Virus record (IMG/VR): IMGVR_UViG_3300045988_170943
Location: 320,001 to 384,000 of that record
DNA from: a virus
Length of the DNA: 64,000 bases
Reading direction: 5' to 3' (one strand)
The notes beneath the pieces are model-generated. The model saw only the letters and a program-made list of their open reading frames with translations. It was not told the DNA's origin and ran no database searches. The translations under genes were made by a program, and so were the position numbers. Of this stretch, positions 40,790-58,619 are shown piece after piece; position 1 is the first letter of the stretch; each line of letters begins with the position of its first letter.

Positions 40790-41980
40790 ATGCTTGACAA
40801 AATAAGAGAGACGGAGTTCTACCAGGAACTTGCAACCGTCATGAAGACTAACAGCACAATGCTGACTGGTTTCGCCGCGATCCTCATCATGGTGTCAGGG
40901 GTCTCTGTCGTTGACCACACTGAACGCTGGTGGGTACCTGTCGTATCCTTAACCGTATTCAGTCTCGTGGTGTTCCTGTTCATGAACTTCAGGGTCATCA
41001 TCAAGGCTATCGGGTCTACTGTCGCCACAGTTATGCTGTCGTCGTTCGCTTTCACAGGCGGGTCGCTGGCAGACCGCTTCGGACTGGGAGGGCTCGTCTG
41101 GGTTGGGATGATCTGGGCGTTGTTCTTCGGCACCCTGGCGTGGTCTTACGGGTTTCAGTCAGGCAGGTCCAGGTGGGCACCCATCATGCTGGCCCAGTTC
41201 GTGTCCTTCTCCGCCACCTACACCCTGATCATGGGGTCTATACCTGTCGCATGGTCCGCCCTGGCTGGTACGACCCTGGGGTTTGTGACGTTCATCGTTG
41301 GGTATACGGTGTTCGGTAGGACCAGGTTCCGAGCGAAGAGCACTCCAGTCAACTTCCTGGACGACGAACTGGCGGCCACCATCGTCGAGGGCGCTGAGAA
41401 CCTTGGCTGGGAGGCCACACCCATGCCAGGTAAGAGCGACACTGGGTCTGTGCTTGTGTGGAACGATGAACGCGCATACCTGCTGCACCCTATCAAGATG
41501 ACGACACCATTCGGCACCATCGGCAAAAGAAGCCAGTCCCTTTCATACCGGCGTAAAAGTATCACCCCATGGTTGAACCACCTGATCTACCACCGGATCC
41601 CGTTGTGGAGGTCCAGGGGCGCTGACATCACGCTCGTGCTAGTGGACCTGAACCGCCGCAACAGTGAATCCATGAAGGTGATTGCCCAGCCTGTGCCTGA
41701 CTCTAACCGGTTCGTGCCTGTGTGTGTGGCACCGATCAGCAGAAAACGTAGCCCCCAGAAGGTTGAACGTATGCTGAAGGACGTGGATTCAACCATGGGG
41801 CCCATGAAACGGCACCTAACAGGGAAGCAACTTAAGGCCCTCGCTGGCATCGGAGCCAAAGATGCCCCAACTGACGAGGCAGACGATGCTGACGAGGAGA
41901 CCACATCCATCACCAACACGACTAGCAGCGAAGACGACACCGGAACCATCGAACACTCGCTGACTAGGTTGGGGTCCTAG
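40790..41980 (+). CDS. polytopic membrane protein, hypothetical
   Basis: Five to six hydrophobic helices N-terminally and a charged, acidic C-terminus. The last codons overlap a 22-nt repeat shared with the 57.08-kb locus. Confidence 0.4.
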   Translation: MLDKIRETEFYQELATVMKTNSTMLTGFAAILIMVSGVSVVDHTERWWVPVVSLTVFSLVVFLFMNFRVIIKAIGSTVATVMLSSFAFTGGSLADRFGLGGLVWVGMIWALFFGTLAWSYGFQSGRSRWAPIMLAQFVSFSATYTLIMGSIPVAWSALAGTTLGFVTFIVGYTVFGRTRFRAKSTPVNFLDDELAATIVEGAENLGWEATPMPGKSDTGSVLVWNDERAYLLHPIKMTTPFGTIGKRSQSLSYRRKSITPWLNHLIYHRIPLWRSRGADITLVLVDLNRRNSESMKVIAQPVPDSNRFVPVCVAPISRKRSPQKVERMLKDVDSTMGPMKRHLTGKQLKALAGIGAKDAPTDEADDADEETTSITNTTSSEDDTGTIEHSLTRLGS

Positions 41981-42100
41981 CGCACCCCAAAAGAACGCAA
42001 GTAGATGCCCATAGTGTCCCTGGCCTGGAGGTAGAATCCGCCCCAGGGCAACCCGACCCAGGTACCCCAATAGTCAAAACACAACAGCAGTGAGGTAGCC

Positions 42101-43597
42101 ATGCCAGCAGTCAAGGATCAGTTCGTCTCCCTGCACATGCACTCCGACTACTCCCTACTGGACGGCTACGCCAAGCCAGGAGAGTACATCAACAGGGCTA
42201 TCGAACTTGGGCAGCCAGCCATTGGGCTCACAGATCACGGGAACCTTCATGGCATCAAGCAGTTCATTGACCAAACCAGGGACGCTGGCCTCACCCCAGT
42301 ACCCGGTTCCGAGTTCTACATGGCCCCCATCAGTGATGACGGACCATACCCCAAGCATCCTGTCTACTACGGTGAGGGTGGCCGCAAGAACCCTGAGCAT
42401 GACGTGTCCGCTAACGGGACCTACCTGCACCTAACTGTCTGGGCTTACAATGACGCCGGTTTGAGTAACCTGAAGCGCCTGTCCACGCTCGCCTATGCCC
42501 CAGAACGCTACTACCGGAAACCACGCATCGGGTTTGACGACCTGGCGGACCACTCAGACGGACTCATCGTATCCACGGGCTGCCCCTCATCAGAGATCAG
42601 CACCAGGTTACTCATGGGACAGGAGCAAGCAGCCTATGAGTACGCTGGGCGCATGAAGGAAGTGTTCAAGGACCAACTGTTCATGGAGATCATGAACCAT
42701 AACATGAGCATCGACCTTGAACGCAAACTACTGCCTCAGCAGATGCGTCTAGCGAAACGACTCAACCTCCCCCTACTGGCAACCAACGACTGCCACTACG
42801 CCAACTCCGGGGACGCCCAGGGACACAGTGAGATGCTTTGCATCCAGTCAAAGTCCCTCATGAGTGACAAGACCTATGATCAGGGCGGTAAACGGTTCGC
42901 GTTCAACGGCGACCAGTACTACATGAAGTCCGGGGCACAGATGGCGGCACTGTTCCCTGAAGATGACTATCCCGGCGCCCTGTCGAACACGCTACTGATC
43001 GCAGAGATGGCCTCAGACATTAGGATGGTGTTCGACCCCCACCTGAGGCCCGTCCCGTTTGTCCCTGAGGGCACCACGGTAGAGAAGCATCTCCAGCAGA
43101 TGATCAACGACGGATACAAGGCCAAGTATGTGAACCGTGACTACCCAAGCGTGGAGGAGCGCAAACGTGTCCTGAGTGAAGCAAAACGACGCATTCGTGA
43201 AGAGTGGGAGGTCATCTACTCGTCCGCGTTTGACGGGTACATGTTGGTCGTGGAGGACTATCTGAGATATATCCGGGAGAATTACTCGGTGCGAGGCGAG
43301 AACGGGGAGATCCTTGCATCTCCGTTGGGGCCGGGCCGCGGCAGTGTCGGCGGGTGCATCATCGCATACCTGCTGGGCATCTCTGAGATCGACCCTATTG
43401 AGTATGATCTCCTGTTCGAGCGTTTCCTGTCTCCTGGGCGTGGCGCTGTCTGTCGGGTCACTTATGATGACGGCACTACCGAGGACCTTGTGGTGTCCGA
43501 AACCAGAACTGTGCTGGGTGATGATGGTCAGGAGGTAGGCAGATACATTCACCAGATCAACATTGGGGATAAGGTTGTCATTGAAGAGGAGCACTAA
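42101..43597 (+). CDS. dnaE: DNA polymerase III alpha (DnaE) N-terminal fragment (PHP domain plus start of palm), truncated before the catalytic aspartates
   Basis: PHP motif LHMHSDYSLLDG at the N-terminus. GPGRGSVGGCIIAYLLGISEIDPIEYDLLFERFLSPGRG corresponds to the conserved segment directly preceding the DnaE catalytic DxD. The ORF then continues as Cys-initiated CRVTYDDGTTEDLVVSE...EEEH and stops. A TnpB gene follows on the opposite strand. Confidence 0.65.
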   Translation: MPAVKDQFVSLHMHSDYSLLDGYAKPGEYINRAIELGQPAIGLTDHGNLHGIKQFIDQTRDAGLTPVPGSEFYMAPISDDGPYPKHPVYYGEGGRKNPEHDVSANGTYLHLTVWAYNDAGLSNLKRLSTLAYAPERYYRKPRIGFDDLADHSDGLIVSTGCPSSEISTRLLMGQEQAAYEYAGRMKEVFKDQLFMEIMNHNMSIDLERKLLPQQMRLAKRLNLPLLATNDCHYANSGDAQGHSEMLCIQSKSLMSDKTYDQGGKRFAFNGDQYYMKSGAQMAALFPEDDYPGALSNTLLIAEMASDIRMVFDPHLRPVPFVPEGTTVEKHLQQMINDGYKAKYVNRDYPSVEERKRVLSEAKRRIREEWEVIYSSAFDGYMLVVEDYLRYIRENYSVRGENGEILASPLGPGRGSVGGCIIAYLLGISEIDPIEYDLLFERFLSPGRGAVCRVTYDDGTTEDLVVSETRTVLGDDGQEVGRYIHQINIGDKVVIEEEH

Positions 43598-56836: not shown

Positions 56837-57089
56837 AACAAGGAAGCGGCCGCACCCACCCCGCCTACTCTCCTGTGTAGTGGGCCATAGTGCGTCACTT
56901 ACGCTGTCACCCCCACCCTGCCATGTGCGCCCCAACACCCCGGTTCTGCGGCCTGTGAACCTGCTGGCTGATAATGCCCACACCAGGCACTCTAAAACCC
57001 AGCGGGGGTTCCGCTACCCCTGCTGTCGGTAGAATCCGCACGCTGACAAAGAAATACACCCACAGGGGAAGGGATTGAACACTCGCTGA

Positions 57090-58619
57090 CTAGGTTGGAG
57101 ATCCTCTAGAATCTAGGGTTTCCCTCACCATCATCAGCGTCGCCTCGGTTTTTCTTTCCGAGGTACCAGTGTGTCCCTGGATTCCACTCAGGGCAGTGAC
57201 CGGTTTCGACTGTCGCGTAACAGTCGAACTTCGCTCTAGCGCCCTCTGGCGAAGCAGAGAACGCATTCTATCACGGTTTCTCGTGCTTGAGATAGCACGC
57301 AAGGCAATCTCTCTAGATGCCGAGATGTCACGATCCAGTGAGAAACCACAGGTAGTGCAGGTACCGACCCTACTCTTCGAGTTGTTCGATACCTTACCAC
57401 CGCAGCGAGAGCAGGTCTTTGAGGTGTTCTTGGCGCTCACCTTGGTTACTTTAATCCCGTAGCGCTTAGCAGTTTTCTCTATCCTGTGCTGTATCTCAGC
57501 ATGAGGCCACCTACCACCCAAAGCGTCAAGCCAGGACAGGTTCTCCAGAGACAGATGAGCATCGCTCTTATTAGCGATTTCCACTACCTGGCTGGCGATA
57601 CACTGACTGATCTCATGCTTTATCCTGGTAGCCTTAGCACCGACTCGCTTCGCCTCAGTCCTGAGAATCTGAGCACGCTGGGCTCGGTTGTATCTCTCAC
57701 AGAGGTCCGCTCGTTCGTACAGATGAGCAGATAAATCACGACGTTTCTTCTCTGCCCTAACTAGAGAACCGAGCCACCTCTTGTAACTAACGTAATACGG
57801 AGCAGACCTGTACTTAGCCTCAGGATCTATGACGGTAGTGACGAACGGCTCTACCTTACCCAGGTCAACGCCTACAATCTTGTTGGTGTCTCGCTGATGC
57901 ACCTTGCGCTCGATAGCGATGTCAAAGACAACCTGGCCCTTGTCGTTCAGTCTGATAGTTGGGCGACATACCTTACCATCACCAAAGCGTGACTCATTAT
58001 CTGGAAGTCTGAAGTAGAGTCTAGTAAGACCGTTACTTGGCGTCTTGACCTGAACGATGACACTCAACGGATCGCTGTCGTCTCGAACTGCCTTAGGTGC
58101 GAAGTAGGTGTCACACACAGCCAGGTTCAGTTTGGCGTTCACTCCAGGTAGAGACGCCTTCCTCTCGCCTTTGACGTGATAGCGCCTCAGGTGAGCGCGG
58201 ATCATTCCACTGGTCGGCTGCGGAGCATCAGGATAAGCGACCTTGTAGCAGGAGAGGATCTTTTCTGGCTTGGTCTCCTTAGGGTGAGTGTTCATTACCT
58301 GAAACAGGCCAACTGAGACAGCATAAGACTCTAGAGCGCCAACTATATTGGTGATCAGCATCTCATTCATGTTGTGCTTCTGAAACTCAAAGTCGTAACG
58401 ACTAAGGCGTTTACGACCCCAGGAGTTCAGAGAACCGGTCGGCCTGCCACCCCGTAGAACTTTCACTGCCAGGTCATGAAACTCTGAACCGGCAAGCACC
58501 TCCTGCTCAGCCTGAGCCATCCAAGCAACCATCTGAGCCAGATCAGCACTCACTGAGTCAGCGTCAACTCCATCGTCAGTGGTGAACCTGTGCCTAGTCA
58601 CAGCGTCATAGTACTTCAC
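57090..58619 (-). mobile_element. tnpB: second IS605-family OrfB/TnpB-like homologue (diverged paralogue)
   Basis: RuvC-I IVGVDLGKVEPFVTTV, RuvC-II LENLSWLD, zinc finger CSRCGG...CTTCG, RuvC-III DRDISASREIALRA. The 3' end overlaps the 22-nt repeat gaacactcgctgactaggttgg. Confidence 0.8.

Follow-up and report, generated by a model that had tools for sequence, protein, structure and literature searches.

We analysed a 64,000-nucleotide (nt) stretch of viral DNA (positions 320,001 to 384,000 of IMG/VR record IMGVR_UViG_3300045988_170943; hereafter the window), which is part of a ~420-kb human oral megaphage genome. The genome carries two families of non-autonomous, tnpB-only elements resembling the IS200/IS605 insertion sequences (IS), and a complete copy from each, here TnpB-1 (family 1) and TnpB-2 (family 2), lies in the window (Table 1). 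A 22-mer, GAACACTCGCTGACTAGGTTGG, occurs at 57077-57098, at one end of the TnpB-2 element, and again at 41951-41972 (locus 1), upstream of a dnaE gene. These are its only occurrences within the window even when 3 mismatches are allowed, and 100 shuffles gave 0 matches. The repeat grows to 24/25 identity over 41948-41972 and 57074-57098. The first-pass annotation had placed the 57077-57098 copy where IS right ends and omega-RNA scaffolds lie, and alignments of the element family bear this out.

The ends of family 2 were defined by boundary alignments, initially of 10-15 copies and then of about 100. In IMG/VR, 11 loci encode TnpB-2 relatives at 73-81% identity, often several per contig, and the right-end 19-mer turned up in another 16 viral loci and, with 99 matches, in 96 stretches of metagenome. 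On the 3' side, conservation runs to ...GGATC(T/C)CCAACCTAGTCAGCGAGTG and the sequence beyond differs locus by locus; nearly all 19-mer matches retain the full upstream scaffold, with ~70 distinct flanks after ...GCGAGTG. On the left, conservation begins TCGCC(C/T)GCAGTC and continues through a TTGACT-17-TA(T/C)AAT promoter and an AGGAGG ribosome-binding site (RBS). The left-end logo (41 sites) reads A (33/41), C (34/41), T (32/41) and G (39/41), with positions -5 and further out random, and the first base past the right end is T in 37/41 sites; the family-2 target is therefore ACTG^T, the caret marking the insertion point. Each element, ~1.64 kb long, consists of a putative left-end promoter, a ~507-amino-acid (aa) TnpB, a predicted omega scaffold in the last ~150 nt of the open reading frame (ORF), and the right end, which stops 10-14 nt past the tnpB stop codon. 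The left-end hairpin of family 2 is a short, imperfect ACTG...CAGT only, while the right end carries a long terminal helix. The terminal motif of the right end resembles the transposon-adjacent motif (TAM), reading AGTG for ACTG in family 2 and CNCT for GNCT in family 1. The flank past the right end (the next ~16-20 nt) probably acts as the guide, given the known TnpB mechanism (PMC10055086) and the ~70 differing flanks.

At locus 1, 18 extra bases, CTCGCTGACTAGGTTGGG, are present at 41956-41973 and read CCCAACCTAGTCAGCGAG on the minus strand. They are absent from three close relatives (L018, L019 and L020; ~92% identity to the window across 34-52 kb, and likewise across 18 kb), which read ...ATCGAACA followed directly by GTCCTAG... 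at this place. On the minus strand this empty allele, GGACTG^TTCGAT, is a perfect family-2 target, and the window reads GGAC-CCCAACCTAGTCAGCGAG-TG TTCGAT. The 19-mer at this site is identical to the family-2 right-end terminus. Furthermore, the genome contains another family-2 copy (P0032, ~130 kb into its 418,686-bp contig) whose right end, GGATCCCCAACCTAGTCAGCGAGTG, matches all 18 bases including the leading C; the nearby TnpB-2 copy (GGATCT) lacks that C. Because the relatives are without the 18 nt, the site is an exact ACTG^T and the right-end match is perfect, locus 1 can be read as a vestigial right end: in all likelihood it is the scar of a family-2 element that was mostly deleted after insertion at ACTG^TTCGAT. 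The solo IS end that the first-pass annotation had offered as one reading of locus 1 was thus essentially right, with the corrections that only a 20-nt vestige is left and that it belongs to the TnpB-2 family, not to the neighbouring TnpB-1.

We propose that a family-2 element, probably a copy like the paralogue P0032, inserted at ACTG^TTCGAT, where it would have overlapped the last codons of the membrane-protein gene 40790-41980. Nearly the whole element would later have been deleted, perhaps between the imperfect repeats CTAGGAC in the flank and CTAGAGGATC in the right end, leaving eighteen in-frame bases behind; the presence of these repeats at the deletion endpoints is only suggestive of such a route. 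With the insertion, the membrane protein ends in ...IEHSLTRLGS in place of ...IEQS; IEQS, IEES or a similar ending, lacking the six extra residues, is found in all other listed proteins of its 155-member cluster. The identical 396-aa, scar-bearing protein is present in at least 7 contigs. In a related phage (L185), a TnpB-1-family element at 5166-6815 (78% nucleotide identity to the TnpB-1 element of the window, its ORF split into 214 aa and 283 aa) occupies the identical junction in the opposite orientation, which makes locus 1 a recurrent insertion hot spot.

Table 1. Coordinates of TnpB-related features in the window (ORF, open reading frame; RBS, ribosome-binding site; TAM, transposon-adjacent motif)
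Feature	Position	Strand	Remarks
Vestigial right end (scar), TnpB-2 family	41954-41973	-	18-nt insertion + 2 shared target bases (TG)
Complete TnpB-2 element, tnpB-only, IS200/IS605-like	57080-58715	-	1636 nt; family conservation starts and stops sharply there, flanks site-specific
TnpB-2 ORF	57090-58619	-	509 aa; D252/E359/D431, two CxxC
TnpB-2 omega-RNA-like region (predicted)	57080-57228	-	Inside ORF 3' end up to right end; four helices
Predicted TnpB-2 guide segment	57060-57079	-	Flank just past right end, TTCAATCCCTTCCCCTGTGG
TnpB-2 TAM	58716-58719	-	ACCG here; family consensus ACTG
Element-borne sigma-70-like promoter	58659-58692	-	TTGACT-17-TACAAT; kept in all family copies; putative function
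AGGAGG RBS, TnpB-2	58617-58633	-	Downstream of element promoter; conserved in family copies
Complete TnpB-1 element	43699-45350	-	1652 nt; between dnaE-N and clamp-loader gene; junction uncertain by ~3 nt
TnpB-1 ORF	43708-45231	-	507 aa from GTG; D/E/D, two CxxC
TnpB-1 omega-RNA-like region (predicted)	43699-43839	-	At right end; consensus structure from 20 sequences
Predicted TnpB-1 guide	43679-43698	-	ATATGGTAACCACAATAACA; putative guide role
TnpB-1 TAM	45351-45354	-	GCCT here; family consensus GNCT
Orphan TnpB-1-family right end + omega-like segment	24141-24278	+	No TnpB ORF, no left end
12-mer GGTAGAATCCGC	42030-42041	+	Upstream of dnaE; outside any element; conserved in scar-free relatives
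12-mer GGTAGAATCCGC, second copy	57028-57039	+	Flank 41 nt past TnpB-2 right end; shared only with syntenic L008, L009

As judged from their sequences, both TnpBs, which share 24% identity with each other, are divergent relatives of the curated TnpB family. The Pfam model PF07282 (Cas12f1-like_TNB) scores 52.3 and 63.5 bits for the two, above its gathering cutoff of 26.3. The first TnpB ORF had been listed as 43708-45249 (-), and a conserved RBS points to the GTG start at 45231. The TnpB-1 residues are D231 (GVDVG), E323 (SFEDLS) and D396, with CxxC at 369 and 386; the CxxC pairs of the TnpB-2 zinc finger lie at 403 and 421. In both proteins the RuvC triad and zinc-finger residues line up with solved Cas12f and TnpB structures, confirming the first-pass view that both genes are RuvC-intact (D/E/D plus zinc finger). 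The triad is invariant across 26 sequences, and its integrity in both proteins rules out a nuclease-dead TnpB regulator (TldR). The two TnpBs are presumed to carry out RNA-guided cleavage.

In both families a structured, omega-RNA-like scaffold is predicted to overlap the tnpB 3' end and the right end. For family 2, the RNAalifold consensus (84 distinct sequences; first 15) contains four helices with 47 pairs, of which 98.2% are canonical, compared with 29-46% for shifted-partner controls of the same pairs. Compensatory changes occur at 8/47 pairs, and in one hairpin each of three pairs shows 33-37 double changes. The family-1 consensus (20 sequences; 32 pairs, 4 compensatory) is weaker. In family 2, frequent G-U pairs on the sense strand favour an RNA on that strand over the opposite one. 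In the last family-2 helix the 3' strand is made up of the terminal 19-mer, and the 22-mer also takes in the terminal AGTG. No Rfam omega-RNA or intron match was found in 41-59.5 kb, and an IStron (a group I intron plus TnpB) was rejected as no intron family was matched at E <= 1 in 41000-59500. Two kinds of family-2 decay product were also observed among the related loci. In one (L088), the left-end promoter is joined straight to the scaffold's 3' half, and the product is a miniature element like the palindrome-associated transposable elements (PATEs); in the other (L007, the same as L075), most of the scaffold is lost and the terminal GGATCTCCAACCTAGTCAGCGAGTG is kept.

Comparison with the three close relatives identifies the TnpB-1 element as a recent insertion. 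The relatives lack its 1652 nt and preserve the minus-strand empty site GTATCTGCCT^ATATGGTAACCACGATAAC (GCCT^ATATGG). There is no target duplication, the occupied and empty alleles sharing only a 5-nt overlap of TAM and transposon end. Family-1 alignments end on the right in ...TAGTCATACNCT and show GNCT in the left-end flank (logo, 11 sites). The predicted TnpB-1 guide, ATATGGTAACCACAATAACA, matches the relatives' empty site beside GCCT with 1 mismatch, an arrangement that would fit cleavage of unoccupied alleles by TnpB (PMC10055086). In another related locus (L015), TATGACTATTCCTTAGG, the reverse complement of a family-1 right end, stands ~30 nt upstream of a TnpB-1-family left end; it directly adjoins the left end of another copy, suggesting either head-to-head elements or a further remnant.

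The neighbouring dnaE gene was considered as something that TnpB-1 had split or carried, and this was rejected: the same 498-aa ORF is found in TnpB-1-free relatives, so TnpB-1 neither truncated nor captured it. The first-pass proposal that locus 1 belongs to a captured passenger region including dnaE fails likewise, as relatives without scar and TnpB-1 keep both the 498-aa gene and the gene order. The ORF itself (42101-43597, +) ends ...FERFLSPGRGAV followed by CRVTYDDG...IEEEH and the stop codon, breaking just before the catalytic PDxDxD. Its tail of 48 aa, with Cys first, may be the N-piece of a split intein; a Pfam scan gave no intein match in this tail, and the C-terminal part of DnaE is absent from the window and the fetched related loci.

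A third TnpB-related feature, missed by the first-pass annotation, is an orphan family-1 right end (Table 1) that begins 19 nt past a GOLLD RNA and is separated from tRNA-Asp (24302) by a 23-nt flank. It is also present, with identical flanks, in three other loci (L163, L195 and L196), and its first helix shows a compensatory G-C to A-U change. The GOLLD RNA (RF02032; 23730-24122, +) lies in a tRNA array and scores 147.5 bits (E = 4e-41, full model coverage), just under the gathering score of 150, and a default gathering-threshold scan misses it. GOLLD as cargo of the element was rejected, as no left end was found upstream of it. Targets of the orphan's putative guide were sought: eight bacterial-genome matches lacked a GNCT TAM and were at chance level, and the viral matches were the syntenic orphans only.

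Three other explanations of the repeat at locus 1 were weighed against the deletion scar. In one, a break at ACTG^TTCGAT was mended by microhomology-primed copying of ~18 nt from a paralogous TnpB-2 right-end junction, with no full-length element ever present at locus 1. Such a templated patch would agree with the 24/25 identity, which reaches 5-6 nt into the flank (donor GAGTG TTCAAT, locus ACTG TTCGAT) and offers possible microhomology, and also with the failure to find a full-length occupant. However, TTCGAT is ancestral at the site in relatives, so the extra flank identity needs no copying. The scar's leading C is absent from the nearby TnpB-2 right end (GGATCT followed by CCAACC), which would require another donor, and the perfect ACTG^T site is as expected of a real insertion. 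The distance at which TnpB cleaves, 15-21 nt from the TAM, also tells against a break at the junction itself. We therefore regard a patch as unlikely. A functional target or decoy, kept for its binding or cleavage by the TnpB-2 ribonucleoprotein (RNP) or for a regulatory effect on dnaE or on the membrane-protein gene upstream, could account for a scar that is in frame and fixed in at least 7 contigs with an identical protein. AGTG replaces ACTG beside TTCGAT, as at any occupied site, and this could make the site refractory to cleavage. The shared bases are, however, those of the scaffold and transposon end and not of the guide, and the predicted guide of the TnpB-2 copy, TTCAATCCCTTCCCCT, does not match TTCGATGGTTCCGGTG, which also leaves the omega-RNA-matching target suggested in the first-pass annotation unsupported. 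Moreover, the three relatives without the 18 nt keep the gene order, and neither a promoter nor a terminator was predicted at the scar site. Retention for such a function is accordingly very improbable. A chance match or generic genome-wide motif, the outcome named at the outset as one that would undermine the repeat, has nothing in its favour for the 22-mer, which occurs only twice in the window, in 0/100 shuffles, and is the invariant terminus of >100 related elements; we give this explanation almost no credence. For the second shared repeat, the 12-mer GGTAGAATCCGC, chance is a different matter: ~2% of random 325-nt window pairs from this sequence share an exact match of >=12 nt (empirical P about 0.02). 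The 12-mer had been reported correctly as exact at both sites, but it is part of no element, it persists in scar-free relatives, and the two repeats are not collinear, the order of 12-mer and 22-mer at one locus being the reverse of that at the other. GGTAGAAT occurs 4 times only in the window. A shared promoter was rejected, no sigma-70-like site being called at either copy, and the 12-mer is treated as a chance match.

Several results weigh against the deletion scar and the assignments on which it builds. The 16 IMG/VR and 99 metagenome matches to the right end include no full-length family-2 element at locus 1; none of the 99 has the TTCGATGG flank or is without the scaffold, and a junction-pattern search gave unrelated chance matches only. 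Because no sampled genome has a full-length occupant, we infer both the former insertion and its deletion. No other solo 19-mer scar was seen among the right-end matches, making this a single case, and the invariant helices, among them the last family-2 helix with the 19-mer, provide no covariation evidence either way. Both TnpBs miss the cutoff of the curated NCBIfam TnpB model NF040570 (61.7 and 86.1 bits; cutoff 100 bits), whose alignment covers only their C-terminal half, and the N-terminal ~210 aa of each has no detectable homology. An AlphaFold2 model of TnpB-2 (mean predicted local distance difference test score 50.5, predicted template modelling score 0.37) is too poor to confirm the TnpB/Cas12f fold (WED, REC, RuvC, TNB). 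Finally, tblastn with IS608/IS200 probes gave no match to a Y1 TnpA in the 2.04 Mb comprising the window and the related loci; these TnpA and recombinase probes are of limited sensitivity, and the search took in neither most of the ~420-kb genome nor the host.

The absence of a tnpA near either TnpB, remarked on in the first-pass annotation, thus holds for the window and the related loci as far as detected. There is also no room for tnpA inside the elements, whose left end starts ~95-120 nt upstream of tnpB, and together these two findings make the elements non-autonomous at best. No serine recombinase adjoins any element and no resolvase-like match was found in the window; those in a few related loci lie >2.7 kb away, outside the elements. 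With no adjoining serine recombinase, and with NF038280 at 16 bits vs 350, the IS607 family was rejected. Mobilisation by a TnpA supplied in trans is presumed. Compared with the syntenic L008, the window (57200-58700) shows 73-81% identity in the element interior and 95-99% in the two flanks. In several loci one flank is shared and the other differs, some having a common left-end flank with different right-end flanks. This interior/flank contrast and the half-shared flanks point to recombination or replacement among copies.

The scar and the orphan right end may also be considered jointly, as remnants shaped by TnpB itself and not as neutral debris. The scar could have been kept because its AGTG, standing beside the old target in place of the TAM ACTG, would protect the site from cleavage by matching omega RNPs of co-infecting phages; after loss of an element only TAM-destroying deletions would then survive. 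The orphan (24141-24278), lying between the GOLLD RNA and tRNA-Asp, could be a trans-acting omega RNA used by TnpB-1, its 23-nt guide released by tRNA 5' processing. Relatedly, the >70 insertion sites without detectable TnpA could reflect spread by a route independent of a Y1 transposase. We find these readings unlikely.

The window has no close match among deposited phages: megablast of 41-59 kb against INPHARED gave no match, and tblastn with TnpB-2 against INPHARED gave distant matches only (<=35% identity). The exact TnpB-2 protein is also present on 418-420-kb contigs from human oral metagenomes, which identifies the source as an oral megaphage. Genes for replication and nucleotide metabolism in the window include RecG, NrdA/E, NrdD, a clamp loader, GyrA and the DnaE fragment. 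The tRNA array (21299-40585, +) comprises 44 tRNA genes, several with long variable regions or odd lengths, and encloses a CCA-adding-enzyme-like gene (30251-31774) and a Ro60/TROVE-like gene (32596-34197); the window also has a tmRNA gene with the tag ANSDNFALAA. Between nrdD and the + strand gene that follows, the opposite strand carries a 379-aa ORF (49619-50758, -) that matches HNH weakly (E = 0.007) and could be a homing endonuclease of the free-standing type.

This analysis resolves the anatomy of two highly divergent and hitherto undescribed TnpB families at base resolution: their ends, their TAMs (ACTG, GNCT), the predicted position of the guide and the RNA structure. These families are abundant in human oral megaphages, with >100 copies at no fewer than 70 insertion sites in public data. 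As occupied, empty and scarred alleles all exist in nature, the elements lend themselves to tests of compact RNA-guided nucleases whose TAMs are not AT-rich. They also pose the question of how tnpB-only elements can spread, and how they decay, in large phage genomes with no visible transposase.

As insertion-sequence biology the repeated 22-mer of locus 1 is ordinary; its host genome is unusual. The closest known systems are the tnpB-only (IS1341-type) members of IS200/IS605, such as ISDra2 and the Geobacillus ISGst elements (Karvelis 2021; Meers 2023, PMC10055086). Like these, the megaphage elements have a single tnpB with RuvC D/E/D and a zinc finger, a structured RNA across the ORF 3' end and right end, a variable flank where the guide is expected, a 4-nt motif on whose 3' side they insert with no duplication of the target, a TAM-like right-end terminus, many copies without tnpA, and miniature derivatives (L088). 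They differ in that the proteins are ~100 aa longer (507-509 aa) and very divergent, with the N-terminal 210 aa unmatched; the whole scaffold lies inside the ORF, with only 10-14 nt between stop codon and transposon end; the TAMs are not AT-rich; and the host is a ~420-kb oral megaphage in which no cognate TnpA was found. Locus 1 resembles solo IS ends and the IS200/IS605 remnants of PATE type or of miniature inverted-repeat transposable element (MITE) type in having right-end sequence only at a genuine insertion site, and the orphan is alike in retaining a full ~138-nt right end. In contrast to PATE- and MITE-like remnants, the locus-1 vestige has no left end and no hairpin, and at 18-20 nt is too short to fold, mobilise or make omega RNA. 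The elements also recall phage homing endonuclease genes, being selfish nuclease genes between conserved phage genes whose relatives keep empty sites predicted to be cleavable (TnpB-1 guide, 1 mismatch). Unlike homing endonuclease genes, their target recognition would be RNA-guided, and because they are found at >70 different sites, true transposition as well as homing is indicated.

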